Shown here: piece after piece, positions 15,744-46,953 of the stretch
Position numbering within the stretch: the first letter of the stretch is position 1
How the letters are laid out: each line of letters opens with the position of its first letter
Source of the DNA: Thermoanaerobaculia bacterium
GTDB lineage: Bacteria; Acidobacteriota; Thermoanaerobaculia; Multivoradales; Multivoraceae
DNA length: 64,000 nt
Reading direction: 5' to 3'
Assembly (NCBI GenBank): GCA_963664405.1
Contig: OY761158.1
Location: 736,001 to 800,000, forward strand
Position numbers and translations under genes: made by a program
Notes under the pieces: model-generated
Databases searched by the model: none
Told to the model about the DNA's origin: nothing
The model's input: the letters and a program-made list of their open reading frames with translations, nothing else

Positions 15744-15791
15744 TGACACCGGTCTGGCGCGAGGCGACACGAATAGCTGAGACCGAATAAG
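15744..15791 (+). repeat. Cassette-boundary site, degenerate box A + linker
   Basis: TGACA-N16(GGCG)-CGACA-cgaATAGCtgagaccgaATAAG. Confidence 0.7.
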
Positions 15792-15847
15792 CCCCGCAAC
15801 AGCGTAGATGTCTATCTGGCGGATAGGATCCGCCACCTGGGAGAGAA

Positions 15848-16849
15848 ATGATGCCGATGCTTGTCCTCAGCCAAACCGAGGTCCGTGAGCTCCTGCCCAT
15901 GGATCGTTGTATCGACCTGATGGCGGAGGCCCTGACCGGCCTCTCGGCGGGTGAGGCGGTCAACCCGCTGCGTCACGGCATCTTCCTGCCTGACCGGTCC
16001 GGCCTTCTGGGCCTGATGCCGGGGTATACCGCCGAGCCGGCGGCACTCGGGGTCAAGGTCATCGCCGTCTTCCCGGACAATCACGGCAGCGAGCTTGACT
16101 CCCACCAGGGCATCGTGGCCCTCTTCGACGCACAGAACGGACGCCCCCTGGCCATTCTCGAGGCCAGTGAGATCACGGCGATCCGCACGGCGGCGGCCAG
16201 CGGTCTCGCCACCCGGCTGCTGGCGCAGGAAGACGCGTCCGAGCTAGCGATCCTGGGCTCCGGCACACAGGCCCGCACCCACCTAGAAGCGATGGCGGCA
16301 GTCCGACCTCTCAACGAGGTTCGAGTCTTCAGTCCCCATCGCGAGCACCGCGAAGGGTTCGCAGCCGAGGCTCGCCGGCGTTCGAGCTTGCTGGTCAGAG
16401 CTGTCGACTCCGCCGAGGAGGCGGTGCGGGGCGCCGATATCATCTGCACCACGACGACTTCGGCTGATCCAATAGTTGATGATAGCTGGATCCATCCTGG
16501 AGCCCATATCAACGCGGCCGGCTCCAGCGTGGCCAGCGATCGTGAGCTCGACACCGCGTCGGTGCTTCGCGCTCGACTCTTTGTCGACTGCAGGGAGTCG
16601 ACAGTCAACGAGGCAGGAGACTTTCTGATTCCGAAGAAGGAAGGCGCGATCACCGACGAACACATTCAGGGCGAACTCGGTGAGATTCTGCTGGGCAGCA
16701 TCCAAGGCCGCCAAAGTGCCGACGAAGTCACGCTCTTCAAGTCGCTGGGGGTAGCGGTCGAAGATCTGGCCGCAGCGACCTACGTCTATACAGAGGCTAA
16801 GGCTCGGGGAGTCGGGACCGAGGTCGAGCTCGGAGGCATGCGTTCCTAG
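15848..16849 (+). CDS. Ornithine cyclodeaminase/mu-crystallin family protein
   Basis: ITAIRTAAAS, GSGTQA, GAHINAAG, FKSLGVAVEDLAAA. Confidence 0.92.
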   Translation: MMPMLVLSQTEVRELLPMDRCIDLMAEALTGLSAGEAVNPLRHGIFLPDRSGLLGLMPGYTAEPAALGVKVIAVFPDNHGSELDSHQGIVALFDAQNGRPLAILEASEITAIRTAAASGLATRLLAQEDASELAILGSGTQARTHLEAMAAVRPLNEVRVFSPHREHREGFAAEARRRSSLLVRAVDSAEEAVRGADIICTTTTSADPIVDDSWIHPGAHINAAGSSVASDRELDTASVLRARLFVDCRESTVNEAGDFLIPKKEGAITDEHIQGELGEILLGSIQGRQSADEVTLFKSLGVAVEDLAAATYVYTEAKARGVGTEVELGGMRS

Positions 16850-16917
16850 AGGAGGTTCAGCGGTATGGATACTGGCGCCGGAGTATTGTTCCATTCACAT
16901 CGTTCGCTTTCCGGAGC

Positions 16918-17061
16918 TGTCGCGAAATCCGGCGGACCACGACAAGAATAGCTCGAAGCGAATAAGCCCCCCGCTGTCGCACTTTTGGGTGCTTCGAGAC
17001 ACGTTAGATCGAGCCCTGAGCCGCTGATCCCCCGGGCGACGGGTAAGATGTTGCCAAGTCA
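16918..17061 (+). repeat. Full repeat unit (box A, linker, box B, kinase leader)
   Basis: Boxes at 16918 and 16975; then GAGCCGCTGATCC..GGGCGAC..TAAGATGTTGCCAAGTC. Confidence 0.9.
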
Positions 17062-19740
17062 ATGACCCTTGAAGCTGGCACTCGCCTCGGCCACTACGAA
17101 GTGGTCTCTTCCCTCGGCGTGGGAGGAATGGGAGAGGTCTATCGCGCCAAGGACACGAAGCTCGGTCGCGAGGTAGCGGTCAAACTCCTGCTCGACGAGG
17201 TCTCCTCTGACCCGGAGCGCCTAGCTCGCTTCGAGCGCGAGGCTCACATCCTCGCCTCGTTGAACCACAAAAACATCGCCAGCCTCCACGCCTTCGAGCG
17301 GGAAGGCGATACCAACTTCCTCGTGATGGAGTTGGTCGAGGGCGAGACCTTGGCTGACCGCATCAAGAGAGGTGCGGTACCAGTCGATGAAGCACTGCCC
17401 GTCTTCTTGCAAATCGCGGAGGGCCTGGAGGCAGCTCACGAGAAAGGCGTCATCCACCGGGATCTGAAGCCTGCGAACATCAAGGTAACCGACGACGGCC
17501 AGGTGAAGATCCTCGATTTCGGGCTGGCCAAGGCGATGGCTGTGGAAGCTAGTGCCACCGGAGACGGCGTCTTGTCCGAATCTCCGACCCTCACTCTTGC
17601 CGCGACTCAGCGGGGCCAGATTCTCGGTACGGCGGCCTACATGGCTCCCGAGCAGGCGCGAGGAAAGACCGTCGACAAGCGCGCCGATGTGTGGGCCTTC
17701 GGGGTCTGTCTGTTCGAGGCGCTGAGCGGCAAGCGAGTCTTTGCGGCCGAAGATACTTCTCAGATTCTGGCCAAGGTTCTGGAGCGTGAACCTCAGTGGG
17801 ATGATCTCCCAAGGAGTGTGCCGGCCCCGATTCGCCAACTGCTTGATCGCTCACTGACGAAAGACATCCGGAGTCGTCTCCAGGCAATCGGAGAGGCAAG
17901 AATCACCGTCGAAAAGTACTTGACCAATCCTTCGGCCTACGATGCAGAGGCCACATCCATTCAACAGCTGATTGACAGACGGCAGATGATGCCCTGGACT
18001 GCTGCTGGGCTGTTGGTTGTAGCACTTCTGATTTTGCTGGTGGTCCTGTGGCCTGCTACTAGCTCGGTAGGGCCTCCGTCCGTCGGTCGATTTGCAGTTA
18101 CAGCACCAGGAGTTCTGAGAGGCGGCCACACGCCGAACCTGGCCTTGTCACCGGATGGCACGCGTGTGGTGTTTGCCGCGTTGCGTGGAGGCATCCCTCT
18201 GCTTTTCGAGCGACCCCTAGATCGCCTGGAGGCAACGCCGATGCCAGGCACCGAGGACGCAAGGGATCCGTTTTTCTCCCCCGATGGCCAATGGGTGGGC
18301 TTTTTTGCCGATAGCAAACTGAAAAAGGTGTCACTTCTCGGTGGCCGTCCGCAAGTCCTCTGCGAGGTCCCGAGCGGCCACGGTGGGACTTGGGGCCCGG
18401 ATGACACCATTTACTTCTCTCCATCGCACTCATCTGCACTATCCAAAGTTTCGGCCAGCGGAGGCACGCCCGAGGCTTTGACGAACCTCGACCCTGGCCA
18501 GGGCGAGACGGCACACTACTGGCCGCAAGTTCTTCCGGGGGGGCGACAAATACTTTTCACCATCTCGAAGAGGGACCTCCGGGATGTCAGTATCGCGGTG
18601 GAGTCTGTGGAGACCGGTGAACGGCACATTCTCTTGGAAGGCCTTTACGCTAGGTATGTGCCGACGGGACACCTGGTCTATGCGCACGGGGAGTCAGTCC
18701 TGGCGGTACAGTTCGATGCCGAACATCTAGAGGTGACCGGCCCTTCAGTGCCGGTGCTGGACGGTGTGCGGTTCTCAGCGTTAGGAGCCGCAGATTTTGC
18801 CGTTTCTGAAGCCGGATTGCTAGCCTATAGACCTGCCGGTACGGACGCAGACAGCGGTGAACTGGTTTGGGTGGACCGAGAGGGATCCGCTCAAGTCATT
18901 TCGGAATTCTCGCGCTCCTATTGGGCAGCTCCCCGCCTCTCGCCCGATGGCGAACGTGTGGCCGTAACTATTGGAAGAGAAGACCGCGACATCTGGATCT
19001 ATGAGCTGGTGCGTGACACCTTAACTCGGCTAACTTTTGACGGAAGCAATCAGCTTTCAGTCTGGACGCCCGACGGTCAAAGAGTGGTGTTCGCCTCAAG
19101 TCGCCACGGAGGGCAGCCCAATCTGTATTGGAAAAGGGCGGATGGCACCGGGCAGGCAGAGCGTCTGACAACAAGCGAAAACTCTCAGTTTCCCATGGCT
19201 TTTTCACCTGAGGGTGAGGTCTTGATCTTTATTGAATATGATCCCCGGTCCTTGTTTGACATCTGGAAGCTTCCGCTCGATGGCGAACCGAAGTTGTTTC
19301 TCCAAACTCCCTTTCAGAATTTTGCGGCAGTTGTTTCCCCCGATGGTCGATGGATGGCTTACCATTCCACGGAATCGGGACAGAACGAGGTTTACGTGCA
19401 GGCCTATCCTGAGCCTGGGGGTAAGTCGAAGATTTCAACCGATGGAGGTACTAACGCGGTATGGGCTCAAGACGGTCGAGAGCTATTCTATCGCAACCAA
19501 AATAAGATGATGGCTGTTGCAATGGAGAGTGTGGGAGAGTTCAGGCCTGCCAAGCCAAGACTCCTTTTCGAACGACCATACCGGGCTGGCGAGCTGCCTC
19601 GCGAGTATGACATCTCACAAGACGGCCAGCGTTTTCTGATGATAAAACAGGCGGAGACGACCGAGGAAGGCCTGGGGAATCAGGTGATTCTGGTGCAGAA
19701 CTGGTTCGAGGAGCTGAAGCGTCTCGCCCCCACCGACTGA
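17062..19740 (+). CDS. Ser/Thr protein kinase 1 with TM and TolB/PD40 beta-propeller
   Basis: Gx[26 protein letters not shown]; TM at ~aa 312-330; repeated FSPDG motifs. Confidence 0.95.
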   Translation: MTLEAGTRLGHYEVVSSLGVGGMGEVYRAKDTKLGREVAVKLLLDEVSSDPERLARFEREAHILASLNHKNIASLHAFEREGDTNFLVMELVEGETLADRIKRGAVPVDEALPVFLQIAEGLEAAHEKGVIHRDLKPANIKVTDDGQVKILDFGLAKAMAVEASATGDGVLSESPTLTLAATQRGQILGTAAYMAPEQARGKTVDKRADVWAFGVCLFEALSGKRVFAAEDTSQILAKVLEREPQWDDLPRSVPAPIRQLLDRSLTKDIRSRLQAIGEARITVEKYLTNPSAYDAEATSIQQLIDRRQMMPWTAAGLLVVALLILLVVLWPATSSVGPPSVGRFAVTAPGVLRGGHTPNLALSPDGTRVVFAALRGGIPLLFERPLDRLEATPMPGTEDARDPFFSPDGQWVGFFADSKLKKVSLLGGRPQVLCEVPSGHGGTWGPDDTIYFSPSHSSALSKVSASGGTPEALTNLDPGQGETAHYWPQVLPGGRQILFTISKRDLRDVSIAVESVETGERHILLEGLYARYVPTGHLVYAHGESVLAVQFDAEHLEVTGPSVPVLDGVRFSALGAADFAVSEAGLLAYRPAGTDADSGELVWVDREGSAQVISEFSRSYWAAPRLSPDGERVAVTIGREDRDIWIYELVRDTLTRLTFDGSNQLSVWTPDGQRVVFASSRHGGQPNLYWKRADGTGQAERLTTSENSQFPMAFSPEGEVLIFIEYDPRSLFDIWKLPLDGEPKLFLQTPFQNFAAVVSPDGRWMAYHSTESGQNEVYVQAYPEPGGKSKISTDGGTNAVWAQDGRELFYRNQNKMMAVAMESVGEFRPAKPRLLFERPYRAGELPREYDISQDGQRFLMIKQAETTEEGLGNQVILVQNWFEELKRLAPTD

Positions 19741-19748
19741 GCGAAGCG

Positions 19749-19899
19749 TGTCGTGAAATGTGGCGCACTGCGACAGGTATAGCCGAAAGGCGATAGACCC
19801 CGAAATGAAGGCGCTGTCGCAGTTCAGGGTGAGGTCCGACAGCACAGATCGAGCTCTGAGCCGCTGATCCCACGGGCGACTGTAAGATGTCGCCAAGTC
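19749..19899 (+). repeat. Full repeat unit
   Basis: TGTCG-N17-CGACA at 19749 and 19815; GGCGAC-tgTAAGAT-GTCGCC at 19875-19894. Confidence 0.92.
19875..19899 (+). promoter_or_regulatory. Putative -10 element (TAAGAT) inside a GGCGAC/GTCGCC inverted repeat; near-leaderless kinase promoter
   Basis: TAAGAT, TATGAT or TAGAAT lies 11-12 nt upstream of every kinase or kinase-stub ATG; no Shine-Dalgarno. Confidence 0.55.
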
Positions 19900-22800
19900 A
19901 TGGCGCTAGAAGCTGGCACTCGCCTCGGCCACTACGAAGTGGTCTCCTCGCTCGGTGCGGGGGGCATGGGAGAGGTGTACCGCGCTCGCGATGCCAACCT
20001 GGGTCGAGAAGTCGCCATCAAGGTTCTGCCCGAGGCGATGGTCCGTAATCCTGATCGGCTGGCCCGTTTCGAGCGCGAGGCCAGAGTGCTGGCTTCGCTC
20101 AACCATCCCCACATCGTCACGATCCATGCGGTCGAGGGCGAAGGCGAGCTGCGCTTTTTTGTGATGGAGCTGATCGAGGGACGGACTCTGGAGGCTGCTC
20201 TGCGTCGAGGTCCTTTCGATGCCGACGCTTTCGTCGAGACTGCCGTTCCGATCGTCGAGGCGCTTGCCGCGGCACATCAGCAGGGCGTCACCCACCGCGA
20301 CCTCAAACCGGCCAACGTCATGATCAATGAGTCTGGATGGGTCAAAGTGCTCGATTTCGGTCTTGCCAAGGAGGTCGCACCGAGCTCTCACTCGGCGAGC
20401 ACGGAGGCGACGACCGCCGGCATGACCGAGGTCGGCAAAGTCATGGGCACCGTGCCCTACATGTCCCCCGAGCAGCTACGAGGCCTGCAGGTGCAAGCCA
20501 CTTCGGACGTTTTCTCCCTGGGCGTCCTGCTCTACGAGATGGCGACAGGACGGCACCCCTTCCGGGGCGACAGCGACATCGACTTGGCGTCGGCGATCCT
20601 TCGCGACACTCCGCGAGCGGCGAGCGCTGTCGGGACACTGCTACCGGTAGAGCTCGACCCAATTCTGGCTCGCTGTCTCGAGAAGGACCCGAGGAAGCGC
20701 TTCCCGTCGGCAAGCGATCTTCTGGAGGCTTTGATGGAGCTTCGCGACGGCTCACCGGCAGGGGGCGTCGAGTTGGCGCGGATTCCCACGTCGGTATCCG
20801 CGGCGACGGTGTACCGCACACCGATGGTGGGCCGGCAGTCCGAAGCGGAGCAGCTACGCCAGGCACTGGAGCGGGCCTCGAACGGTCAGGGGGCGCTCGT
20901 GACCCTGGCTGGGGAGCCGGGCGTCGGGAAGACGCGGCTCGCGAGGGAGACGATCTCGCAGGCCCGCGAGCGGGGCTTCCTGGCTCTGGTGGGAAACTGC
21001 TACGAGGGCGAAGGAGTGCGGCCTTTCAGCCCCTGGGTCGAGATCCTCGACGCAACGGCGAGGGTGGCTCCCAAGGAAACACTACGCAGTCTTCTTGGAG
21101 ACGAAGCCTCCGAGATCGCCAAGATCTATCCGGGACTCAGACGCCTCTACCCCGACCTGCCGCCGCCGTTGGAGCTACCGCCGGAAGCCGAGCGCGGCTA
21201 CCTCTTCGACTGTTTTCGCGACTTCATCGAGCGCTCGAGTGAGCTTCAACCGCTGCTCCTGGTGCTCGAAGATCTGCACTGGGCGGACGAGCCGACACTC
21301 CTCTTGCTGCAGCATCTGGCTCAACGAGTCGCGCAGTTTCCGCTCCTGATCGTCGCCACGTATCGCGATGTCGAGCTCGATGTCGCGCGTCCTCTTGCAA
21401 GTAGCCTACGAGAGCTGGTGCGCGAGCGTCTGGTGGAGCGCATCTCGCTCGGGCGCCTATCCTTCTCTGCGGTGTCCGAGATGCTCGCGGCACTCAGCTC
21501 CCGAGAGCCGCCGGCTGACCTGGTCGCTGCCATTCACGGTGAGACGGAGGGCAACCCTTTCTTCGTAGAAGAGGTGTACGAGCACCTCGACGAGGAGGGT
21601 CGACTGTTCGACGACCAGGGTCAATGGCGAGACGGCCTGACGCTCGAGGATCTCGAGGTCCCCGAGGGAGTCCGACTGGTCGTCGGTCGCCGTCTGGAGC
21701 GACTCCCCGAGGACGGTCGCCGGATCCTGGCGACGGCTGCGGTGATCGGACGCAGTTTCTCCTACAGCCTCGTGAGTGCCGCTTGTGAGGCGGAGCCCGA
21801 CCTTCTGTTGGAGGACATCGAGGCCGCCGAGGCGCTGCATCTGATCGAGCGCACGAAGAGTGCCTCGCCGCGGGAAGCCCGCTACCAGTTTGGGCACGAG
21901 CTGATCCGACAGACTCTTCTCCAGGGGCTGTCAATGCCTCGCCGCCAGCAGATCCACCATCAGGTCGCAGAAGCGATGGAGGCTCTCTACGCCGGAGCTC
22001 TCGACGAGCATGCCGCAGCGATGGCTCACCACCTCTATCAGGCGGGCGCGATGATCGAAGAGGATCGGGCCCTTCACTTCTTCACTCTCGCGGCCGACCA
22101 GGCCCTGGCGGCCGGCGGTTTCGAGCAGGCTGTGGAGCAGTTAGACCTTGCCCTGTCGTTGCGAGCTGCCGAACGTGCACAGCAGATCGACCTGCTCTGG
22201 AAGCGCGGTCGGGCGAGAAAAAGCCTCGGCTTGTTTGCGGAGGCTCTGGCGGATTGGAAACAGGCTCTGACATTGTGCGAGCAGGGCGCGGATCCGGCGA
22301 CCGTCGCACGCATCTCCTGGGATCTCTCACTTCAACTCGGCTGGCAAGCCGAGCCGGCCGAGATGGTGGAGGAGTCTCAGCGCGGCCTGAGACTGATGGG
22401 CGAAGCGCAGGGGCCGGAGCGCTGCCGCCTCCTGGCCATGGCGGGGATGGCGTTGGCGTTCGATCGGCAGTTCGAAGAAGGGGATGCGCTGATTGCCGAG
22501 GCGATCCCGATGGCTGAGAGTCTGGGAGATCCTGCTCTGCTCGGCCACGCCAGGCTGATGAGTTCATACATTTATTGGCACTCGATGCGCATGCCCCAAT
22601 TGGTGTCGAACAGCGAGCAAGCGATCGAGATTCTGAAAGGCACCAACGATCCTAGGAGCCTGATTGACGCCCGTGCCTACCTCGCGTTCGGCAAACTCGC
22701 CATGGGCTGCTCGAACGTGGACACGTCAGAGTTCGAAGAGGCAGCGCTGCGACTCGGAAGTCACGGGGACCACTACATATTCCTGATGGTTCGAGCTCAG

Positions 22801-23526
22801 TCGGCGTGGATGCAGAGCGCCGATATCGATCGCTTCGACGGGCTTATCGAGGAAGCATTCGGTCTCCCTGACATGCCTTGGCATCTGTTCGCGCGAGGGT
22901 GGCGTGGTTTGGCTGCGTTCTGGAGAGGCGACTGGGAGACTGCGTACGAGCTTCTGGCTGAAGCCGTGATAGGAGAGCCGGTCGGGGCGCTCTACGGCGT
23001 CACCACGTCCTCGTTGCTCCTCGTCTCCGGCTATCTCGGTCGACGAAGCGAGGTGCTCGCCCTCTATGACTCGGAAGACGCCCTTCCTCGAGGCTCCGGC
23101 CCGAACGCCAACGGCGCCTGGTGCGTGCTACTGGGCGCTACAGAGGCGCTCGCCATCCTGGGAGAGCGAGACCGGGCCGCTGAGCTCTACTCGATGCTCG
23201 AGAGAGCCATCGATACCGGCACGCTCATCCCGCCTTACGTTCCGCGGCTCCTGCAGACGACTGCCGGCATCGGGGCCTCCTGCCTGCGCGATTGGGACCG
23301 CGCTGAAGGGCACTTCCGGAAGGCTCTCGAACAAGCCGAGAGAATCCCTTTCAAGAGTGAGCAGGCGGACGCCCGTCGTTGGTACGCGGATATGCTCCTC
23401 GAACGCGGCGCCCCCGACGACACGGCTCGGGCGCATCGGCTCCTGGAAGAGGCGCGCACCATTTACGAGCAGATCGGGATGCCCAGACACGTCGGCCTCA
23501 CGGAAGATCTGCTTGCCAGGGTCTGA
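19900..23526 (+). CDS. Ser/Thr protein kinase 2 fused to AAA/STAND ATPase and TPR-like region
   Basis: Kinase motifs; Walker A GEPGVGKT, Walker [14 protein letters not shown]; helical C-terminus. Confidence 0.95.
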
Positions 23527-23556
23527 AGAGCCGGCGCGGCGCAAGTCGGACGAGAC

Positions 23557-23707
23557 TGTCGCATTTGGTGGCGCACTGCGACAGCCATAGCTCGATCCGC
23601 ATAAGCCCTCGCTGAGCGCTTTTGTCGTCTTTCTGGGTGAGGTGCGACAGCACAGATCGAGCTCTGAGCCGCTGATCCACCGGGCGACTGTAAGATGTCG
23701 CCAAGTC
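23557..23707 (+). repeat. Full repeat unit
   Basis: Boxes at 23557 and 23623; ATAGC..ATAAG linker; conserved leader. Confidence 0.92.
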
Positions 23708-26368: not shown

Positions 26369-26377
26369 GCGAGAGTC

Positions 26378-26531
26378 TGTCGCTTTTGGTGGCGGACTAC
26401 GACACGAATAGCCAAGTGTCGATAGCCTCCAGAGAAAGGCCGTCTGTCGTACTTCTCGGTGCTTTGCGACACCCACAAAGCGATCGGCGAGCAGCTGATC
26501 CCACCGGCGACGGGTAAGATGTCGCCAAGTC
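26378..26531 (+). repeat. Full repeat unit
   Basis: Boxes at 26378 and 26445; leader CTGATCCCACCGGCGACGGGTAAGATGTCGCCAAGTC. Confidence 0.9.
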
Positions 26532-26585
26532 ATGGCTCTAGAAGGTGGCACTCGGCTCGGCGACTACGAAGTGGTCGCTCGCTGA
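26532..26585 (+). pseudogene. Kinase 5' stub (MALEGGTRLGDYEVVAR*)
   Basis: Direct translation; near-identical to the first codons of kinases 1, 2 and 4. Confidence 0.85.
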
Positions 26586-26636
26586 GGCAGTCATAAATGC
26601 CATTATGAAGGGCCGCAACGCCGAAAGGAGGTCCCG

Positions 26637-27278
26637 ATGGCGGACGAGTGGGAATTCAAGACTGAGACCTACGATAATTGCAATTGCGCCGTGAACTGTG
26701 GGTGCCAATTCAACTTGCCCACTACCCATGGCTATTGTCAGACGGCCTATTTCGGCACCGTGGTTGAAGGGCATTTCAATGGGACGCCGCTCGCGGGCCT
26801 CAGGTGGGCGGGGCTCTGGAAATGGCCGGGGGAAGTCGCGGCGGGCAACGGCACGCGCCTCATCGTCATCGATGAGCGGGCGGATGACGCGCAACGGGTG
26901 GCGCTCGAAACGATTGTCGCAGGCGAGGCCTGCGCCCCCCTGAGCAACGTTTTCTCCGTGTACGGCTCTTGTTGCACCGAATTTTTGGACACCGCGTTCC
27001 TACCCATCGAGTTCGAGGCGGACTTCGAGCACCGTACCGCCAAGGCCCACATCCCGGGCATCCTGACCAGCCAGGGAAGACCGATGATCAATGAATTCAG
27101 TGGCGAACCGTTTCACGTGGCGCTGGCCCGCCCAAGTGGGGGCGTCGAGTTTACGTACGCGGAACTCGGCCTGGGAACGACCACAGTGGGCGGGGGCCTG
27201 GACATGGCGTACGCCGATTCCTTTGCCATGTTTTGCGTGCTCCACTTCAATCAGGATGGCCTGATCCGGCCGACATGA
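26637..27278 (+). CDS. DUF1326 family protein, copy 1
   Basis: NCNCAVNCGCQFNLP..HGYC motif; AGGAGG RBS. Confidence 0.85.
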   Translation: MADEWEFKTETYDNCNCAVNCGCQFNLPTTHGYCQTAYFGTVVEGHFNGTPLAGLRWAGLWKWPGEVAAGNGTRLIVIDERADDAQRVALETIVAGEACAPLSNVFSVYGSCCTEFLDTAFLPIEFEADFEHRTAKAHIPGILTSQGRPMINEFSGEPFHVALARPSGGVEFTYAELGLGTTTVGGGLDMAYADSFAMFCVLHFNQDGLIRPT

Positions 27279-27484: not shown

Positions 27485-27493
27485 GCTAATCGG

Positions 27494-27542
27494 TGTCGCG
27501 ATTCGTGGCGAGAGGCGACAGGAATAGCTTGAGCCGCATAAG
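27494..27542 (+). repeat. Box A + linker
   Basis: TGTCGcgattcgtGGCGagaggCGACAggaATAGC..cATAAG, 10 nt after a stop codon. Confidence 0.88.
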
Positions 27543-27559
27543 CTTGTTGCGTCCCAAGA

Positions 27560-31753: not shown

Positions 31754-31772
31754 CCTTCCCCGCCGAGGCAAG

Positions 31773-35142: not shown

Positions 35143-36837
<1,695 letters not shown>

Positions 36838-36860: not shown

Positions 36861-37012
36861 TGTCGCAAAATGTGGCGGTCTGCGACACGAATAGCCAGCT
36901 CCACATAGACCTCACAGAGCGGATTTGTCGCCTTTTGTGGTGCCTTGCGACAGCACAGATCGAGCTCTGAGCCGCTGATCCACCGGGCGACGGGTATGAT
37001 GTCGCCAAGTCA
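36861..37012 (+). repeat. Full repeat unit
   Basis: Boxes at 36861 and 36926; leader with TATGAT. Confidence 0.92.
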
Positions 37013-39694: not shown

Positions 39695-39787
39695 TGTCGC
39701 CCTTGGTGGCGCACTGCGACACAGATAGCCGGAAGCAGATAAGCCGCCGCGCAGAGGGGCTGTCGTGAAATTCGGTGGAAGGTGACA
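39695..39787 (+). repeat. Box A + linker + box B (no kinase leader)
   Basis: Boxes at 39695 and 39761; ATAGC..ATAAG. Confidence 0.88.
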
Positions 39788-39826: not shown

Positions 39827-41827
39827 ATGAGCCTCGACATCTTTCTAAGCGAGGTGGTGGTGCTTCTGGCGTCGGCCGTCGTCGTGATGCTGGTCAGCGT
39901 GCGGCTCCACGTGCCGCCCATCGTGGCGCTGCTCGCTACGGGCGTCCTCATCGGCCCACACGGGCTCGGCTGGATCTCAAGTGTGCGCGAGGTCGAGCTC
40001 TTCGCGGAGGTGGGCGTCGCCCTACTACTCTTCACCATCGGTCTGGAGGTGTCGATCGATCGCCTGCGCAAGCTGCGCCGGGCACTCCTGCTCGGCGGCT
40101 CGGTGCAGGTTTCGCTGACGACCGTCGTCGTGACCGGCGTCGCTGCTGTCGGGCTGGGTCTGCCCTGGCTCCACGCTCTGTTCATAGGGTGGGTGGTCTC
40201 GCTTTCGAGCACCGCTCTTGTGCTCAAGCTGCTCAGCGATCGGCGCGAGACCGAGACGCCGCACGGTCAGCTCGCTCTTGCCATCCTGCTCTTCCAGGAC
40301 TTTCTGATCGTGCCGATGATCGTCTTGACTCCTTTCCTGGCAGGCACCCTCGGATTCTCGATTGGCGCGTTCCTGGGCCGTCTCGCGGGGGCGGTGGCCG
40401 CCCTCGCTGTCGTCTTTCTTATCGGGCGCCGGCTCTTGCCGCGGCTCCTCGAGGTCGTCGTGCGCTCTGGCGCGCGCGAGGTCTTGCCGCTAGGGGCCCT
40501 GGCGCTCTGCCTCGGCATAGGCTGGCTCACCCATTCGTTTGGGTTCTCGCTCGCCATCGGCTCCTTCCTGGCGGGCGTTCTGCTCGCGGGCAGCCTCTAC
40601 TCTCACCAGGTAATCGCTGACATCGCACCGTTCCGGGATCTGTTCTCGAGTATCTTCTTCATCTCGATCGGGATGCTCCTAGACGTGGGGTGGGTCGCGG
40701 CGCGTCCGGGCACGGTGATCGCGGTAGCGGCAGGCATGATCGCACTGAAGATCGTTACGGCGGGCGCCGCCGTGGCAGTTCTAGGGTATCCCGTACGGAC
40801 CGTGGTGCTCTCCGCACTCGCACTCGCCCAAGTCGGCGAGTTCTCGTTCGTTCTGATGGAAGTGGGCCTGGAGAACGGCCTGCTGATCGGTGGACGCTTT
40901 CAGCTGCTCCTGGCGGCGGCGGTCGTGACGCTGCTGGCGACGCCGGTAGTTGTGACAGTCTCGCACCGGCTTTCGGCCTGGCTGGGCGGTCTAGTTCCGT
41001 CACGTCGCGCAACGGCGACCCAGCAGCCCACTGAGGGCGAGGAATCGGATCACGTAATCATCGTGGGCTTCGGCGTCGGAGGGCGGCTGCTGGCCCGCGT
41101 TCTGCGGGAGGGAGGCATTCCCTACATCGTGGTCGAACTCAGCGGCGAGCTCGTACGCTCCGGGCGACGCGAGGATGAGCCCATGCTGTACGGCGACACG
41201 ACGCGCGAGGAGATTCTTCGGCGCGCCGGAATCGAGCGAGCGAACGTAGTGGCTTTCGCCATCTCCGACATAGCCGCTGTGCTCCTAGGGGTGAGGCTCG
41301 CGCGGCGGCTGGCCCCTGGCGCGCAGATCATCGTGCGAACCCGCCTGGTGAGCGAAATCGAAGGGCTGCGGGCGGCAGGTGCCGATCAGGTCGTGGCGGA
41401 GGAGTTCGAGACCGCGATCGAGGTCTTCACGCGCGTGCTGGAGCGCTACCATGTGCCACGCAATATCGTCCGAGCGCAGACTCGCGTGCTGCGGGGCGAG
41501 GGCTATCGCATGCTGCGCTCTTCGTCGCTCGATCGCACGGTCTCGCAAGCCGTACTCGACGCCCTCGCCGCGGGCACTACCGACGTCTACCTGCTCAACT
41601 CCGACACTGTCGTGCGGGGCCGGAGCCTGCGCGAGCTCGATTTGCGCCAGCGCACCGGGGCCACTGTCATAGCGGTCGTGCGCGACGGCTTGTCGCAACT
41701 CAACCCCGAGCCAGACCTCTCCCTCGAGCCGGGCGACAGCCTGGTGCTGGTGGGCAGCCACCAGGAGATCGACGGCGCGTTCGACCTCCTGGCGAGCTTC
41801 GAGGAAGACCTCGAACGTCCTGAGTGA
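39827..41827 (+). CDS. CPA2/Kef-type cation:proton antiporter with TrkA-N and TrkA-C
   Basis: LLFTIGLE, SLSST, ILLFQD, QVGEFSFV, IIVGFG; TAGAAT 6 nt before ATG (leaderless). Confidence 0.92.
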   Translation: MSLDIFLSEVVVLLASAVVVMLVSVRLHVPPIVALLATGVLIGPHGLGWISSVREVELFAEVGVALLLFTIGLEVSIDRLRKLRRALLLGGSVQVSLTTVVVTGVAAVGLGLPWLHALFIGWVVSLSSTALVLKLLSDRRETETPHGQLALAILLFQDFLIVPMIVLTPFLAGTLGFSIGAFLGRLAGAVAALAVVFLIGRRLLPRLLEVVVRSGAREVLPLGALALCLGIGWLTHSFGFSLAIGSFLAGVLLAGSLYSHQVIADIAPFRDLFSSIFFISIGMLLDVGWVAARPGTVIAVAAGMIALKIVTAGAAVAVLGYPVRTVVLSALALAQVGEFSFVLMEVGLENGLLIGGRFQLLLAAAVVTLLATPVVVTVSHRLSAWLGGLVPSRRATATQQPTEGEESDHVIIVGFGVGGRLLARVLREGGIPYIVVELSGELVRSGRREDEPMLYGDTTREEILRRAGIERANVVAFAISDIAAVLLGVRLARRLAPGAQIIVRTRLVSEIEGLRAAGADQVVAEEFETAIEVFTRVLERYHVPRNIVRAQTRVLRGEGYRMLRSSSLDRTVSQAVLDALAAGTTDVYLLNSDTVVRGRSLRELDLRQRTGATVIAVVRDGLSQLNPEPDLSLEPGDSLVLVGSHQEIDGAFDLLASFEEDLERPE

Positions 41828-41866: not shown

Positions 41867-41937
41867 TGTCGCACTCTTCGGCGGCAAGCGACACGAATAG
41901 ATCGAACTGAATGGGCTTCCAGAACGCCGTGTTGTCG
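41867..41937 (+). repeat. Box A + half box B
   Basis: TGTCGcactcttcGGCGgcaagCGACAcgaATAG; TGTCG 66 nt downstream. Confidence 0.82.
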
Positions 41938-42095: not shown

Positions 42096-42461
42096 ATGCT
42101 GCGAATGAGCGTCGAGCAGTTCGAAGAGGTCGTGGCGGAGGCGCTCGGGGAGATTCCCGCGGACCTGGCCGAACGCATCGAGAACGTCACCGTGATGGTC
42201 GAGGGCGAGCCCCAGCGCGAGCTGCTCGTAGATCTCGGCATGGACCCGGACGAGGACCTCCTCTTTGGCCTCTACGAAGGCGTTGCTCTACCAGAGCGCG
42301 ACACGAACTACGCGGGCACCCTGCCCGACCGCATCCTCATCTATCGACTGCCGTTGCTCAAGGCCTGTGAGACCCGCGGTGAGCTGCGGCGCGAGATCCG
42401 GCTGACAGTGATCCACGAGCTCGGGCACTACTTCGGCCTCGAGGAGGAAGAGCTCCCCTGA
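42096..42461 (+). CDS. Zincin-like metallopeptidase (Zincin_1/DUF1025)
   Basis: LFGLYEG, PDRILIYR, HELGHYFG. Confidence 0.88.
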   Translation: MLRMSVEQFEEVVAEALGEIPADLAERIENVTVMVEGEPQRELLVDLGMDPDEDLLFGLYEGVALPERDTNYAGTLPDRILIYRLPLLKACETRGELRREIRLTVIHELGHYFGLEEEELP

Positions 42462-42525: not shown

Positions 42526-42552
42526 TGTCGCACTTGGTGGCGAAGGGCGACA
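42526..42552 (+). repeat. Single box
   Basis: TGTCGcacttggtGGCGaagggCGACA. Confidence 0.85.
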
Positions 42553-42681: not shown

Positions 42682-43062
42682 GTGGTACACGACTTGGCAC
42701 ACCGCGACCTAGGCATCGAGCTGACCGAGGCCCAAACCACCTACATCAACCTGATCATCGTCGCGGCACCCGTCGTCGCTGTCATTCTCGTGTGGACAAG
42801 GTTCAAGACGGCTGGGGCCATACTCTTCGCTTTCGCCATGGCCGGCTCCCTTCTCTTTGGCCTCTACAATCACTACCTTCTCGTATCGCCCGACCACGTG
42901 TCCTACCTACCCGACGGCGATCTCCAGTCTGCCTTCCGGATCACCGCTTCGCTCCTGGCGCTCCTCGAGGCTCTGGGAGTGGCAGTTGGAATCTGGGGGG
43001 TCATTCTCGGCCGGGGCTCCGAAGGCAAAGGACCTGGAGTGCCGAGCGCGAGCGTGTCGTGA
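42682..43062 (+). CDS. Membrane hypothetical protein
   Basis: TM segments, HY..SPDHV motif; true start may lie ~55 nt upstream. Confidence 0.6.
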   Translation: MVHDLAHRDLGIELTEAQTTYINLIIVAAPVVAVILVWTRFKTAGAILFAFAMAGSLLFGLYNHYLLVSPDHVSYLPDGDLQSAFRITASLLALLEALGVAVGIWGVILGRGSEGKGPGVPSASVS

Positions 43063-43205
43063 TTTGTGGCGCAAACATCATGGGATGGCGCGCGGGTGGC
43101 GCCCCCGGACGATGTCGATGAATATTCTTGAGTGGTCCTCCCCCGAAGGCGTCAAGCTTAGGGAAACACAAACACCTGGGCTTGGACCCAGGAAGGAGGA
43201 CCAAG

Positions 43206-44240
43206 ATGGAACGATACCTTGGCATCGATCCCCACCGCGACAGCTGCACGCTGGCGTTGGTGAGCCCGCGAGGCAAGAAGGTCAAGCAGATGGTGGTGCC
43301 GACCGAAGGGTCGGAGCTGGTCAAGACGGTGCGGGAGCTTCGAGGGCCGCTGCACGTCTGTGTGGAAGAGGGCGAGTGGGGCGAGTGGATCTCAGAGATT
43401 CTGACACCGTGGGTGGCTCGCCTGGTGGTCTGTCGGCCCGAGAAGCGTCGAGGTCCGAAGAGCGATGCCTGCGATGCTCGGGAGCTGGCAGAGCGTCTGC
43501 GGACGAATCGGACGGGCCCGCCGGTGTACAAGCCCGGGCAGGAGTGGGCTCGTTTGCGCGAAGCGGTGCGCCTGGAGTCGAAGCTGACCCAGGATCTGAC
43601 TCGCACGAAGCTGCGCTTGAACAGCCTTTACCGTCGGCGGGGGGTGACGTGCCCCAACGGCGACCTCTACCTACCACGGCATCGCTCGAAGTGGGTAAAA
43701 CAGCTGCCTCCGAGCGGACGTCCGTGCGCGGAGATCTGGGGCGAGCAGATCGATTTGCTCGCAGAGCTCCACGAGAAAGCAGAGAAACAGATGCACGCTG
43801 CGGCTGCGCAGTTTCCGGTCTGGAGCACGCTGCAGACCGCACCGGGGATTGCCAAGAAGCGAGCCGCGATCCTGCTCGCAACGGTGGTCACACCGCACCG
43901 GTTTCGCACCAAGCGGCAGTTTTGGTCGTACTGTGGTCTGGGAATCGTGACTCGGAGCTCCTCGGACTGGGTCCAGCAGTCCGGGCACTGGGTGCGTGCA
44001 CCGGTGATCCAGACCCGCGGTTTGAATCGGGCATCCAACCGGCCGCTGAAAGCGGTCTTCAAGGGCGCGGCGCTCTCAGCGCGCACGATGTTGGCGCCCA
44101 ACCCCTTCCGCAACCACTACGACCGCATGCTAGAAGCCGGGACGAACCCGAACCTGGCGCAGCTGACGCTGGCGCGCAAGCTCGCGGCCATCGTTTTGGC
44201 GATGTGGAAGACCGAAAGCGAGTACAAACCCATGAGCTGA
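43206..44240 (+). CDS. IS110-family DEDD transposase/recombinase
   Basis: YLGIDPH, VEEG, KSDACDA; APGI, SYCGL..RSSS, LARKL; GGAGGA RBS. Confidence 0.93.
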   Translation: MERYLGIDPHRDSCTLALVSPRGKKVKQMVVPTEGSELVKTVRELRGPLHVCVEEGEWGEWISEILTPWVARLVVCRPEKRRGPKSDACDARELAERLRTNRTGPPVYKPGQEWARLREAVRLESKLTQDLTRTKLRLNSLYRRRGVTCPNGDLYLPRHRSKWVKQLPPSGRPCAEIWGEQIDLLAELHEKAEKQMHAAAAQFPVWSTLQTAPGIAKKRAAILLATVVTPHRFRTKRQFWSYCGLGIVTRSSSDWVQQSGHWVRAPVIQTRGLNRASNRPLKAVFKGAALSARTMLAPNPFRNHYDRMLEAGTNPNLAQLTLARKLAAIVLAMWKTESEYKPMS

Positions 44241-44605
44241 TCCACCCCTTCTCCGCTCCTTGCTCGAGCCGTCTGCAGGCTGACGTAGCTCAGGAGCCTG
44301 GATCGAGAGCGGGATCGGCAGCGAGATCGAAAGGTCGAGGGGAAGTCTCCACTGTCGTCATCGGCCCCATCGAAGACGGTGGAAGTCACCAGGCGCAAAC
44401 TAGGCCCCCTCACAGGACCGAAAGAAGAAATGGCCTAAGAGGCCCCGTTGGGAAGTTGGTCCACAAACCTAGTAGGACACCAAAACTCGCTTCTTATCTC
44501 CAACGCCGCACCGCTCACACAACCGATCTGAGGACCGAACTGCGCGTAGCGGACCGGCTCGGTAACGGAAAGTACCGCGCTCGATATCAAGTCGTCGAGG
44601 GCCTA
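44241..44605 (+). ncRNA. Putative bridge/seek RNA region of the IS1111-type element
   Basis: Target guides CTGTCGT (44352-58) and GGCGCAAAC (44392-400) lie in an internal loop between two stems; RNA boundaries unknown. Confidence 0.75.
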
Positions 44606-44613
44606 GGAAAGAT

Positions 44614-45897
44614 GGCTCTTCAGGATTTCGTGTGGGCAACAGGCCTCGGGTAGAGATCGAGTCCTCCAAGATGGAAGTAGATGGCGTTACGGAATCGCTC
44701 CCGATTACGGAATCCTCGCGCGGCTCTTTTGATGTTCTGGATCTTGGTGTTGAGGCCCTCGGACATGGCGTTGGTGACGCCGGTCTTCATGGCGTTGACG
44801 ATGCCCCACAGGTAATGGCGTAGGGTTTTGGCCACCTTCTTGATGGGAGCGAGGCGGGAACGGATCGCCCAGGAGTACCAGGAGGCCCAGGCCTGTTCGG
44901 CGTCGTCCGCGGCGCTGGTCTCCCACACGGTCATCGCCAGCTCCTTGATCGCCCAGGCCCGTGCCGTTTTCAGTGCGCTATTGCGAAGCTCCTCGAAGCG
45001 AAGCTCCTGCTCCGAGGTCATGTGGTCGGGATTGCGCAACCAGAGGTAGCGAGTCCCACTGAGCCGATCGTCGCCATCCGAGCGAAGGTCTCGATGTTCC
45101 TGGCGACGGACACGATCGACGGCGTCACCCAGAAGCTTGGCGACGTGAAACTTGTCAAAGACGATGCGCTCAAGCGGCTTGTCGAGATGCTCGCTGGCCG
45201 CCGAGATGTAGGGGCCCCACATGTCCATCGCCAGCGTCTCCACCTGGCTAAGCCACGACGCTGGAGCACCTTGCAAAAACTTCCCTAGAGCTTCCCGACC
45301 CCGACCGTCCGCGACGTGAACCACCGTCCCGTGACTGCTGTCCACGACCACCGTGACGTACTCGTGCCGGCGTTGAAACGACGTCTCGTCTACACCCAGA
45401 TGGCGGGTCGGGCGCAGCGTTCTGCGGGCCAATCCTCGGCCCACGGCACGCTGCTGAACCCCGTCGATCTGATCCCAGCTCAAACGCAGAAGCCGGGCAA
45501 CAGCCGAGAGATTCGACTCTCCAAGCCAGTCGATCGCCAGCCGCTCGAACTGTGCCGTGAAGCCCGAGCCGACCTCGGCCCACGGCACACGAACCTGACG
45601 GACGCCGTGATCTCCGCACTTCACACGAGGAACCTCCGCGACCAGAACCGTCATGTACTGCATCGTGTCGAGGTGACGCCACTTGCGCTCACGCGTGTCG
45701 TAGCGCGGACTCGCCGCTCCGCATTCCGGACACGCTAGCTTCCGTGACCCGTTCTCCAAGTGCACTTCCACCGTCTCTGGACCTAGCTCGACATCTGTCA
45801 CATGCCACGGCTCCTCGATCCCAAGAAGCTGGGCGTAAAGCTCTCGATCTCGCATACTCGCAGCATACGATCAACCCACACGAAATCCTGAAGAGCC
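44614..45897 (-). mobile_element. ISL3-family insertion sequence
   Basis: Perfect 23-bp IR GGCTCTTCAGGATTTCGTGTGGG; 8-bp TSD GGAAAGAT at 44606-13 and 45898-905. Confidence 0.96.
44620..45855 (-). CDS. ISL3 transposase
   Basis: CPECG zinc finger, WRHLD, GVDETS, MDMW, FDKFHV, TNAMSEGLN. Confidence 0.95.
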   Translation of the reverse strand: MRDRELYAQLLGIEEPWHVTDVELGPETVEVHLENGSRKLACPECGAASPRYDTRERKWRHLDTMQYMTVLVAEVPRVKCGDHGVRQVRVPWAEVGSGFTAQFERLAIDWLGESNLSAVARLLRLSWDQIDGVQQRAVGRGLARRTLRPTRHLGVDETSFQRRHEYVTVVVDSSHGTVVHVADGRGREALGKFLQGAPASWLSQVETLAMDMWGPYISAASEHLDKPLERIVFDKFHVAKLLGDAVDRVRRQEHRDLRSDGDDRLSGTRYLWLRNPDHMTSEQELRFEELRNSALKTARAWAIKELAMTVWETSAADDAEQAWASWYSWAIRSRLAPIKKVAKTLRHYLWGIVNAMKTGVTNAMSEGLNTKIQNIKRAARGFRNRERFRNAIYFHLGGLDLYPRPVAHTKS

Positions 45898-45968
45898 GGA
45901 AAGATTTGTCTTGACATCTCATCCCTTGGGAAACGACAGCCATAGCTCGATCCGCATAAAGAGACGCA

Positions 45969-46898
45969 ATGAAGACATTGAAGCGTATTACCCTGCTCGG
46001 AATACTCATGACAGCACTCGTGGCCTGCCCGGCTGCGCCCCCGGGGAGCTCGACTGATGAGGAGGCTGCCGTAAGGAGGGGCACACAGAGATTTCTGAAG
46101 GCCCACAGCCTCAAAGACTGGCCTGCTGTCGCTGCGACGTATACGGAGGACGCCGTTCTCCATCCACCCAACGCAGGCCCGGTGAAGGGCCGGGACGAGA
46201 TTCAAGAGTGGTTCGAAGCGAACGAGCAGTACACGAGCCTGGATCTGGAGATAGCCGAGATCGATGTCCGTGCGGACCTGGCCTACGTCTGGGGACTCTC
46301 CACGATAACGATCGAGGAACCAGGAAGAGAGCCGGTGGTCCTTTCGGGAAAGTACTTGGACATTCGACGGAAGCAGCCCGATGGCGACTGGCTGATCTCC
46401 GTCGATATGTTCAGCCCGAGTGAAGAATTAGGTGTAACAAATGTCGTCGGGTCAGTCGAGCCCTACGTCCAGAGCTGGGAGGAAGGAGAGATGCTCGTCG
46501 ACTCGAAGGGTCGAAAGACGTTCATCAAGGTCAGCCCTGAAACCGGAGCCCAGAGCCTGGCGTTTTTTGTTCAGCAGATGCCCTCGGGTTCCGGAATCAA
46601 GGTCCACCGACACAGCCGTGCAGAGGAAGTGCTGTTCGTACACGAGGGCTCCGGGACCTTTGTCGTGGGCGACGGGCGCGTACCCGTCGAGAAGGGGGCC
46701 ACGGTCTTTGTCCCGCCCGGCGTGTGGCATGGCTTCGAGAACCCAGACGAGCAGGTCGACCTGGCCTTCGTGGTGACACCAACCGGGCTGGAAGGTCTCT
46801 TTCGAGAGCTGTTCTGGCGCGAAGGCGAGGAGCCGAAGGTGTTCACTCCCTCGGAGATCGAGGAGATCGAACGCAAGCACGGCCAGCCCAGTCGCTGA
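45969..46898 (+). CDS. Lipoprotein: NTF2/DUF4440 domain fused to cupin
   Basis: LVAC lipobox; GKYL..RKQPDGDWLI; HRH..EEVLFV..G, PPGVWHGF. Confidence 0.8.
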   Translation: MKTLKRITLLGILMTALVACPAAPPGSSTDEEAAVRRGTQRFLKAHSLKDWPAVAATYTEDAVLHPPNAGPVKGRDEIQEWFEANEQYTSLDLEIAEIDVRADLAYVWGLSTITIEEPGREPVVLSGKYLDIRRKQPDGDWLISVDMFSPSEELGVTNVVGSVEPYVQSWEEGEMLVDSKGRKTFIKVSPETGAQSLAFFVQQMPSGSGIKVHRHSRAEEVLFVHEGSGTFVVGDGRVPVEKGATVFVPPGVWHGFENPDEQVDLAFVVTPTGLEGLFRELFWREGEEPKVFTPSEIEEIERKHGQPSR

Positions 46899-46904
46899 CG
46901 CTGC

Positions 46905-46953
46905 CGTCGCGATTCATGGCGCAGCGCGACACGCATAGCTCGACCCGAATAAG
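46905..46953 (+). repeat. Box A + linker
   Basis: cGTCGcgattcatGGCGcagcgCGACAcgcATAGC..gaATAAG, 7 nt after a stop codon. Confidence 0.85.

Follow-up and report, generated by a model that had tools for sequence, protein, structure and literature searches.

Integrons are the textbook example of gene capture by site-specific recombination, and they rely on a single clade of integrases and on folded attC sites. The attC consensus is RYYYAAC ... GTTRRRY, and insertion sequences (ISs) that home to these recombination sites are known. The main other case of gene capture is that of the dif modules on Acinetobacter plasmids, whose sites stand in alternating orientation. The present study concerns a stretch of 64,000 nucleotides from a Thermoanaerobaculia bacterium, positions 736001-800000 of a single 6.78-Mb contig, 62.6% G+C (OY761158.1), which is referred to below as the window. 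It holds an array of genes separated by 27-bp boxes with inverted TGTCG and CGACA arms. We read these boxes as double-stranded, core-type sites for a tyrosine recombinase within an integron-like cassette system, a reading to which we assign a probability of about 0.7, with a small recombinase named srec as the most likely enzyme.

Two groups of described systems serve here as points of reference outside integrons. According to the available text of three reports, the dif modules of Acinetobacter plasmids are sets of genes that lie between short core-type sites for tyrosine recombinases and become shuffled from one replicon to another (PMC6449649, PMC13141974, PMC10132070), and the last of these texts, as far as available, describes ISs that target pdif sites at a fixed distance and orientation (PMC10132070). 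The other is MrpR of phage SPbeta, which the available text presents as a protein of tyrosine-recombinase fold that has lost recombinase activity and binds a repeated element, SPBRE (PMC10516654); it resembles our case in that a protein of this fold is tied to a repeated DNA element. We found no description of the present arrays, or of the srec family, in the titles, abstract starts and open-access texts that were searched.

Boxes of one polarity in seven arrays

The window contains 19 exact copies of the pattern TGTCGY-N7-GGYG-N5-CGACA; every one of them lies on the plus strand within 16918-42552, whereas 100 dinucleotide-preserving shuffles of the same DNA gave a mean of 0.00 and a maximum of 0. 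When up to two mismatches are allowed, the window yields 29 matches, as opposed to a shuffle mean of 0.98 and a maximum of 5. At this tolerance no box lies between 46932 and 64000, which bears out the claim, made in an earlier reading based on the DNA letters alone (the sequence-only reading), that the distal flank is free of boxes. The same reading had listed 17 box loci. Thirteen of these are exact (16918, 19749, 23557, 26378, 27494, 31727, 32557, 33751, 34829, 36861, 39695, 41867 and 42526), two have one mismatch (29986 and 46905), one is a half-site split by an IS, and one is degenerate. The split box, at 43055, was described correctly: its first 17 nt, through TGGCG, are followed by an IS110-family element, and its 3' half lies at 45929-45938. 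The degenerate one, proposed at 15744, has kept its core, 3' arm and linker in good shape, whereas its 5' arm has decayed, and is better placed at 15743-15769.

Second boxes, which had been noted downstream of many sites, start at 16975, 19815, 23623, 26445, 30053, 33818, 36926 and 39761, with start-to-start spacings of 57, 66, 66, 67, 67, 67, 65 and 66 nt from the first box. The proposed linker, ATAGC..ATAAG, is borne out by both the sequence and the position counts. A single polarity is kept even around open reading frames (ORFs) on the minus strand, as seen with the box pairs 27494/29986 and 31727/32557. An Rfam E-value scan of 14000-49000 gave zero matches.

Beyond the window, the genome contains 88 exact boxes (34 forward, 54 reverse). 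Rather than being scattered, most of them fall into seven arrays (A0 to A6), each of one polarity, at 17-41 kb, 588-614 kb, 752-783 kb (the window array, A2), 3.94-3.97 Mb, 4.99-5.00 Mb, 5.46-5.48 Mb and 6.51-6.52 Mb. Profile searches with nhmmer recovered 65 left modules, consisting of a first-type box (box1) and its linker, and 32 right modules, consisting of a second-type box (box2) and about 60 nt of sequence from upstream of kinase genes; there are 8-23 modules per array, on a single strand in each of the seven. The two box types form distinct core classes. Among 98 genomic sites with at most one mismatch, 58 are box1, with a (T)GGCG core that is followed by the ATAGC..ATAAG linker, and 36 are box2, with a GGTG core that is followed by the conserved kinase upstream region. 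This division into two classes had escaped the sequence-only reading, as had the variant box at 11662-11688, the recombinase remnant at 46962-47126 and the six arrays outside the window.

Box1 sites are closely associated with the 3' ends of genes. At 50 of the 58, an open frame of 100 codons or more that runs in the same direction ends no more than 200 nt upstream, and 29 of the 58 lie at -3 to 13 nt from the stop codon. By a simple ORF rule, 61 of 85 in-array ORFs are co-oriented with the boxes; 25 of the 85 belong to one Ser/Thr kinase cluster and the remainder are mostly singletons. These ORF counts are rough, as the rule missed the kinase gene at 17062-19740 and took in some spurious antisense frames. 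Elsewhere, an identical 57-nt stretch, composed of a 27-nt near-box with two mismatches and the next 30 nt, recurs at no fewer than 13 places (for example, genome positions 47666, 602964, 816474 and 1682325); it is likely part of a high-copy IS and no kin of the box family.

Breakpoints at the boxes and the type of site

Recombination at the boxes is strongly supported by sequence comparison of the arrays. Window 19760-23586 matches genome 31984-28158, in another array, at 99.686% identity over 3827 bp. Window 31719-32586 matches genome 4990666-4989794, in array A4, at 97.8% (98.4% over 860 bp in a second alignment), and a 582-bp block with a 143-aa ORF is common to two further arrays at 99.5%. 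In base-by-base alignments, the flanks of these three inter-array duplicates are unrelated, and five of the six boundaries fall within box1: upstream ones at positions 11-13, downstream ones just behind position 17, where TGGCG ends. At the sixth, the downstream end of the 143-aa ORF block, the box is degenerate in the A4 copy, and this boundary is neutral with respect to a crossover in the core. A duplicate of 94.5% identity within array 3 begins at the GGTG of box2. On a small scale, breakpoints could also be compared between samples: the metagenome contigs L017 and L018 share, at about 100% identity, a stretch that begins in the box1 core, takes in a recombinase gene and ends in the box2 core, and outside this shared stretch their identity is 0.18-0.30 per 50-nt block, which is the chance level. 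In the three inter-array blocks and in the L017/L018 pair, unrelated sequence gives way to identical sequence at the (T)GGCG or GGTG center. A break at a single fixed point in the middle of a symmetric site is the trace that a site-specific recombinase leaves. RecA-type exchange is disfavored because the shared arms, at only 5-6 bp, are too short for it. Of 24 sequencing runs listed for the window, six hold half or more of its sampled words; four runs were compared with it, all of them assembled contigs. The joints listed there, made at a likeness of 90 and with sides as short as 20-30 letters, mostly connect paralogous kinases. A contig from run X1 matches 31738-32078 and diverges at the box1 core; it could be the A4 copy, and nothing from these runs was used as evidence.

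The box halves carry a related signal. For this descriptive comparison, pairs of boxes were sorted by which flank is alike, and the mean identity at variable positions was taken for each half. Box1 pairs that are alike only upstream (n=12) have an identity of 0.75 in the 5' half and 0.47 in the 3' half, and those alike only downstream (n=26) have 0.37 and 0.74, against a background of 0.42 (5') and 0.41 (3'). The corresponding values for box2 are 0.71 and 0.34 for pairs alike only upstream (n=16), and 0.39 and 0.67 for pairs alike only downstream (n=116). This conditioned test was used in place of plain correlations between half-sites and flanks, which are 0.37 and 0.26 versus about 0 for box2 and flat, at 0.07-0.08, for box1. 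Half-sites reassort together with their own flanks.

These data bear on the suggestion that protein binding or regulation is the main role of the boxes, as in MrpR-like operators or repetitive extragenic palindromes (REPs), that tandem duplication of kinase genes spread them, and that the breakpoints are by-products of short-homology recombination. The kinase genes are indeed a paralogous family with its own conserved upstream region, some members of the srec family are annotated with PF22823 (MrpR_C_cat), and one box at a distant locus holds a TATAAT-like stretch just upstream of an operon. We nonetheless consider this improbable. The breakpoints fall at the box center, neither in the arms nor at random; unrelated genes bear the same site directly after their stop codons; the sites are clustered rather than dispersed; no terminator-like site occurs at a box within 15600-27600; and srec, unlike proteins with MrpR-type loss, has by sequence retained all catalytic residues. 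Repeats of the REP/BIME kind mobilized by RAYT transposases were rejected in particular, on the grounds that the boxes lie mostly in seven arrays and lack covariation, and that none of 13 genomic matches to Y1_Tnp (RAYT-like) lies within an array.

The same lack of covariation distinguishes the boxes from sites that act as folded strands. Beyond the fixed 5-bp TGTCG/CGACA arms, no mirror-position covariation was detected among the 58 box1 sites (positions 6-22 to 10-18); positions 6-22, for example, are pairable in 39 of 58 sites, compared with 38.4 expected under independence. Single-strand folds are weak and mutually different (10 folds of seven composite sites, z from +0.26 to -2.06). Within 15600-27600, no sigma-70-like site was found, although the host may use other promoter types, and terminator-like sites number 7 against 6.1 expected, all inside genes and none at a box. 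Because covariation is absent and the folds are weak and inconsistent, the box is unlike a folded strand of the attC, REP or terminator type. It looks instead like two protein-binding arms of 10-11 bp around an asymmetric crossover region of 5-7 bp, a layout shared by dif, lox and FRT sites.

A true integron remnant, that is, a cluster of unusual attC sites lacking an integrase, would account for the array architecture, the co-orientation, the site at the 3' end of each gene and the IS110-family insertion into a site. Other results count against it, and we regard it as extremely unlikely. In a whole-genome search with the integron integrase (IntI) model TIGR02249, the best match reaches 122 bits where the cut-off is 265, and model positions 181-235 are left uncovered by the matches. 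The RYYYAAC/GTTRRRY ends and the GTT triplet are absent from the position counts of the 58 box1 and 36 box2 sites, and the apparent crossover lies at the center of the first box (positions 12-17), rather than at a G/TT at the 3' end of the site. The sequence-only reading had likewise inferred a site that lacks attC ends, and the genome indeed holds no IntI.

The candidate recombinase, the array heads and the insertion sequences

The genome contains 25 tyrosine-recombinase matches, one of which is the 179-aa ORF srec at genome positions 5456062-5456601. The only intact copy in the genome stands at the end of array A5, where it is flanked by a box1-linker and a box2-like site. The protein matches PF00589 at 100.1 bits (cut-off 27.1) and consists of the catalytic domain only, aligning from residue ~104-133 onward of XerA, XerC-like and XerD structures. 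Its alignments to XerA and XerD keep the Arg, His-x-x-Arg, His and Tyr motifs, and R44, K68, K77, H128, R131, H154 and Y163 are invariant in 25 of 25 aligned family members. Its scores fall below the cut-offs of the curated models for XerA (117 versus 220 bits), XerC (94 versus 335), XerD (93 versus 330) and IntI (68 versus 265), and its matches to the Xer, XerA and IntI models begin at model positions 92-114. Remnants of srec lie at two other places. In the window, 46962-47126 has 83.6% amino acid identity to intact srec over 55 aa (residues 8-62), with DNA of 93.7% identity to the intact locus over 46917-47120, and a C-terminal remnant adjoins the head box at 874 kb of the genome.

The family of ~175-aa proteins to which srec belongs has at least 2691 members at E <=0.001, with 59-92% identity among the 120 matches listed, and occurs across phyla, on plasmid-like as well as chromosomal contigs. 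Among 68 metagenomic loci with homologues of 55-92% identity and at least 400 nt of upstream sequence, 35 have the pattern TGTCG-N17-CGACA, with at most one mismatch, within 1 kb upstream; its density there is 0.855 per kb versus 0.046 per kb elsewhere in the same loci. Several of the box-negative loci show looser versions of the box by eye. The typical homologue locus has two boxes about 95 nt apart upstream of the recombinase gene or its small operon, and one of these loci resembles a plasmid, ParA and a replication initiator being encoded downstream. On another plasmid-like contig, L026 (43% G+C), two near-identical boxes with 9-bp perfect arms lie on the same strand at 7451 and 9204; they flank one small gene upstream of a recombinase homologue (7451-9325), in effect a one-cassette version in a distant organism. 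These occurrences tie the srec family, at the level of sequence, to sites with TGTCG/CGACA arms and make srec the most likely enzyme for the boxes. The clustering and polarity of the boxes, the breakpoints and a recombinase that lies in or next to the arrays, with homologues that carry same-armed boxes upstream, all favor the gene-cassette system that the sequence-only reading had put forward.

A compound head lies at the 5' end of six arrays and at two solitary loci. In the window it comprises a variant box without the GGYG core (TGTCGCACCCACGCACATATCGCGACA, 11662-11688, plus strand), three bases, and a long box with arms 21 nt apart (TGTCGCCTTTC..CGAC(T), 11692-11722, plus strand); in the compound head, box2 then follows ~30 nt on. 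The variant box is of an identical type at the 5' ends of A0, A1, A2, A3 and A6, and related versions are found at A4 and the two solitary loci. The long box is kept in eight aligned heads, and its stretch also occurs 3' of the recombinase gene in L017 and L018. Homology of the window to other heads stops after the long box. Just upstream, ~130 nt (11530-11661) are 92-93% identical among three heads (the window, genome 3944777 and genome 6523212), with no ORF or family match; this stretch could be what remains of a recombinase-proximal region, or a promoter, or a small RNA.

Two unrelated groups of ISs are found at fixed points of the boxes. The IS110-family element in the window is inserted at 43071|43072, straight after the TGGCG of box1, and a 99.4% copy at genome 4985456-4987019 occupies the same point of a different box1 in array A4. 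Nested in the window copy is an ISL3 element (44614-45897, transposase on the minus strand, 8-bp duplication GGAAAGAT). The other is an IS91-family element of 2597 bp, in which a 286-aa full-length tyrosine recombinase, with a SAM-like N-terminal domain and a catalytic domain, is encoded upstream of the Y2/Zn-ribbon transposase. Its full copies lie at genome 34790-37386 (L001 291-2887), 41380-43976, 596847-599443, 615191-617707 and 887166-889762, and a partial copy at 1011285-1012199. In three of the five full copies, and in the partial copy, the end of the element immediately follows a box1 linker (ATAAGG), with the box 24 nt further, and a fifth copy stops 18 nt away from a head box. The element thus seems to home to box1 sites or to travel with cassettes. 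Two unrelated ISs at fixed points of the boxes form a parallel with the ISs found at attC and pdif.

The IS91-family element also figures in two other explanations. The first accepts the cassettes, and the boxes as their recombination sites, but assigns the reaction to the 286-aa recombinase of the element or to the host XerC/XerD, as in Acinetobacter dif modules. This recombinase is of full length, copies of its element end beside box1 linkers or a head box, the genome has two Xer-like genes, and the layout of the 27-bp box resembles that of the 28-bp dif site. The IS91 copies, however, lie beside the linker and away from the crossover core, where they could be cassette passengers, and it is upstream of srec homologues in unrelated organisms that the TGTCGC/GCGACA arms recur, a link that was counted for srec only. 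We therefore hold this assignment to be unlikely. In the second explanation, rolling-circle, one-ended transposition of the IS91/ISCR type copies adjacent genes, and the boxes are signals akin to an origin and a terminus. An element with a Y2 HUH transposase does lie inside or beside three arrays, and the duplicates are copies, not moves. Yet the edges of the duplicated blocks lack IS91 sequence. The two ends of each block also coincide with one and the same point of a symmetric 27-bp site, an arrangement suited to a recombinase dimer rather than to an ori/ter pair, and the same breakpoints recur in L017 and L018, short contigs on which no IS was seen. We judge this explanation to be very improbable.

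A cassette system with srec as its enzyme would operate as follows. The inverted arms, TGTCGY.. and ..RCGACA, of about 10-11 bp each, would flank the asymmetric crossover region of 5-7 bp; with recombinase dimers on the arms of two boxes of one class, strand exchange would take place within the TGGCG or GGTG at their center. Because the sites are direct repeats, excision of a circle is expected, and the circle would carry one hybrid box. It could then re-enter at any box of the same class, within or between the seven arrays, and so place the cassette in a new context. Each gene would consequently carry the 3' half of its upstream site and the 5' half of its downstream site, and excision from one sister chromosome followed by insertion into the other would produce duplicates. 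Because the cores of box1 and box2 differ by one base, recombination is expected mostly between boxes of one class, and a kinase gene should be movable in either register because it has box2 upstream and box1 downstream. The compound head (variant box, long box and box2) would play an attI-like part, and the arrays would ancestrally have carried the recombinase gene. The sequences themselves show the sites, how these are arranged, where the breakpoints fall and how half-sites reassort, whereas the circle, the part of the head and srec as the enzyme are inferred.

Several points weigh against this reading. With assembled contigs as the data, no circle, excision product or strain polymorphism was seen. 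A single intact srec gene would serve ~98 sites, and a close homologue (E <=1e-40) occurs in none of 300 other genomes of the phylum, only in its own. The protein is without an N-terminal core-binding domain and for that reason may need a partner, or may not be the box enzyme. Most distant homologue loci hold no more than one or two boxes upstream of the recombinase gene, an arrangement that an operator or a plasmid resolution site would explain as well; 33 of the 68 homologue loci are without a box by the pattern used, and none of four viral relatives (45-54% identity) has a box near the gene. Within the arrays, the DUF1326 duplicate (92.8%) ends away from the boxes, and positions 11-12 of the presumed overlap vary among sites, which is unusual for a 7-bp overlap. 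The half-site pairs are non-independent events, and that test is descriptive.

The window array and comparison with gene-capture systems

The genes of the window array are heterogeneous. A cyclase-TPR gene on the minus strand (11896-13851; domain matches) lies between the head and the first box1, and an ATP-grasp gene (14090-15661; Pfam) lies upstream of the degenerate box1 and its linker (15743-15795; nhmmer LEFT match 15753-15795, score 31.9). From this site on, the features named below are on the plus strand unless stated otherwise, and genes were assigned by Pfam. A cassette gene of the ornithine cyclodeaminase family (15848-16849; PF02423, E 1.2e-82) is followed by a composite site of box1, linker and box2 (16918-17001; boxes at 16918-16944 and 16975-17001; pattern and nhmmer) and an 892-aa Ser/Thr kinase with PD40 repeats (17062-19740; Pkinase E 1.8e-51). 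Two composite sites then bound the 99.7% duplicate. The first (19749-19841; box1 19749-19775, linker, box2 19815-19841) holds its upstream breakpoint at box1 position 12/13, and the second (23557-23649; box1 23557-23583, linker, box2 23623-23649) holds the downstream breakpoint directly after TGGCG; between them lies a 1208-aa Ser/Thr kinase with AAA_16 and TPR domains (19900-23526), within the duplicated block 19760-23586. The next kinase with PD40, of 908 aa as listed (23642-26368), probably has its true start further downstream, since the listed ORF overlaps box2.

After an exact composite site (26378-26471; box1 26378-26404, box2 26445-26471) stands the first copy of a DUF1326 gene (26637-27278), the second copy of which lies at 30328-30969 with 92.8% nucleotide identity. 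A box1 with linker and without box2 (27494-27544, box1 27494-27520; pattern and nhmmer) and a composite site whose box1 has the core CAGCG and one mismatch (29986-30079; box1 29986-30012, box2 30053-30079) enclose a minus-strand gene for a 760-aa DUF5916/CBM9 protein (27560-29842), which thus lies between two plus-strand boxes. The block shared with A4 is bounded by two box1 sites without linker, at 31727-31753, where identity begins at TCTGGCG, and at 32557-32583, where it stops after CCTGGCG. The composite site at 33751-33844 (box1 33751-33777, box2 33818-33844) is followed by a truncated kinase start (Pkinase fragment in 33600-34181). Window 34112-34525 is 100% identical to genome 4456828-4457241, and window 47161-47369 is 99% identical to genome 4423838-4424046 and 95% to 4442130-4442338; these are probably further mobile or repeated elements that cut the kinase remnant and the recombinase remnant.

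A box1 with a decayed linker (34829-34855; pattern and nhmmer) precedes a 564-aa RpoD-like sigma-70 factor (35143-36837; Sigma70 regions r1_1 to r4). This gene has ~74% nucleotide identity to genome 3477311-3479003 and 3988181-3989579 and, as judged from these matches, is an extra copy of a housekeeping-type sigma factor. It is followed by an exact composite site (36861-36952; box1 36861-36887, box2 36926-36952), an 889-aa Ser/Thr kinase with PD40 (37013-39682), a composite site with one mismatch in box2 (39695-39787; box1 39695-39721, box2 39761-39787), a Na+/H+ exchanger with TrkA domains (39827-41827), a box1 with linker (41867-41893; pattern and nhmmer), a Zincin_1 metallopeptidase-like protein (42096-42461) and an exact box1 without linker (42526-42552). 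Junction sequences place the 5' half of the IS-cut box1, ending in TGGCG, at 43055-43071, the IS110-family element directly after this core at 43072-45930, and the 3' half (..AAACGACA) with its linker at 45929-45961. A SnoaL/DUF4440 and cupin protein (45969-46898), the last box1 (CGTCG.., one mismatch) with linker (46905-46957; pattern and nhmmer) and the small tyrosine recombinase remnant (residues 8-62; 46962-47126; tblastn) form the distal end.

The claim that the cargo consists of signaling genes holds insofar as kinases are prominent, the tally including three kinase-PD40 genes, one kinase-AAA_16-TPR gene and two DUF1326 genes; other gene types are carried as well. In PADLOC, four window kinases match PD-T4-6, a single-gene defense system, and mad6 (E 1e-84 to 1e-92) through the generic kinase domain only, and the cyclase-TPR protein (11896-13851) has weak matches to Pycsar cyclases (E 1.8e-10). 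These matches are a lead toward a defense role of the cargo and no evidence of one.

Outside this genome the layout is sparse. Thirty relatives have hardly any exact boxes (0-4 per genome; controls 0-1). A scan for box1 followed by ATAGC, with one genome per species, returned nine stretches; the box1-linker(-box2) layout is present in six records titled Acidobacteriota, Acidobacteria or Bryobacterales and in one titled Myxococcota, and three stretches in records titled Cryomorphaceae or Pseudolabrys were set aside as likely chance matches. Five layout-bearing genomes that were searched whole have 1-4 exact boxes each. In the fragmentary genome L010, a composite site lies between two kinase genes, as in the window, and three long-contig genomes have solitary sites after a 234-aa ORF by an MFS transporter gene, an Rce1-like gene and a FecR-like gene.

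The system works like an integron but differs from one in its integrase, attC ends, folded strand and crossover point. As in integrons, long one-directional arrays consist of co-oriented cassettes that each end in a site, with precise breakpoints, heterogeneous and partly duplicated cargo, and IS110-family insertions into the sites; a compound head site stands next to a recombinase gene (here, remnants), and other genomes contain recombinase-less arrays and solitary sites. In contrast to integrons, there is no IntI, the sites are of a 27-bp, symmetric-armed, double-strand type with a central crossover and fall into two classes, and the recombinase gene is co-oriented and itself bounded by sites. 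The cassettes are also large, with kinase genes of 2.7-3.6 kb, and many have their own conserved upstream region. In type of site, the nearest system is that of the Acinetobacter dif modules (XerC/XerD, pdif), where short core-type sites also bound gene modules. The arrays described here differ from these modules in being chromosomal and in having direct repeats and ~98 sites of a sequence unrelated to dif, to whose consensus the box bears no likeness, and a small dedicated recombinase is linked to them. FimB/FimE-type invertases resemble srec in their size (~180-200 aa) and their restriction to a catalytic domain. However, the NCBIfam models for tyrosine-type DNA invertases match srec weakly (E 2.4e-06 and 4.4e-06, far below cut-offs), its sequence is nearer to XerA, XerC and XerD, and direct repeats would be expected to give deletion and insertion rather than inversion.

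A broader proposal, which we advance tentatively and at slightly less than even odds, is that the principle of the integron was invented a second time, independently. A family of minimal tyrosine recombinases of 175-180 aa, limited to the catalytic domain, would act on TGTCG..CGACA core sites, and one lineage, probably within the Acidobacteriota to judge by the titles of the records with the same composite site, would have built from this a chromosomal store of several arrays, in which large kinase genes for sensing, and possibly for defense, are excised, duplicated and re-sorted, with two orthogonal site classes as two registers of exchange. The question of whether a catalytic-domain-only tyrosine recombinase can excise and integrate by itself is thereby made testable. 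If the proposal is true, cassette arrays would have arisen more than once, here on a different and much smaller recombinase and on double-stranded core sites, and a compact recombinase with two 27-bp site classes would offer a possible genetic tool. It would also provide a mechanism for the large expansions of eukaryote-like Ser/Thr kinases in some soil and sediment bacteria.

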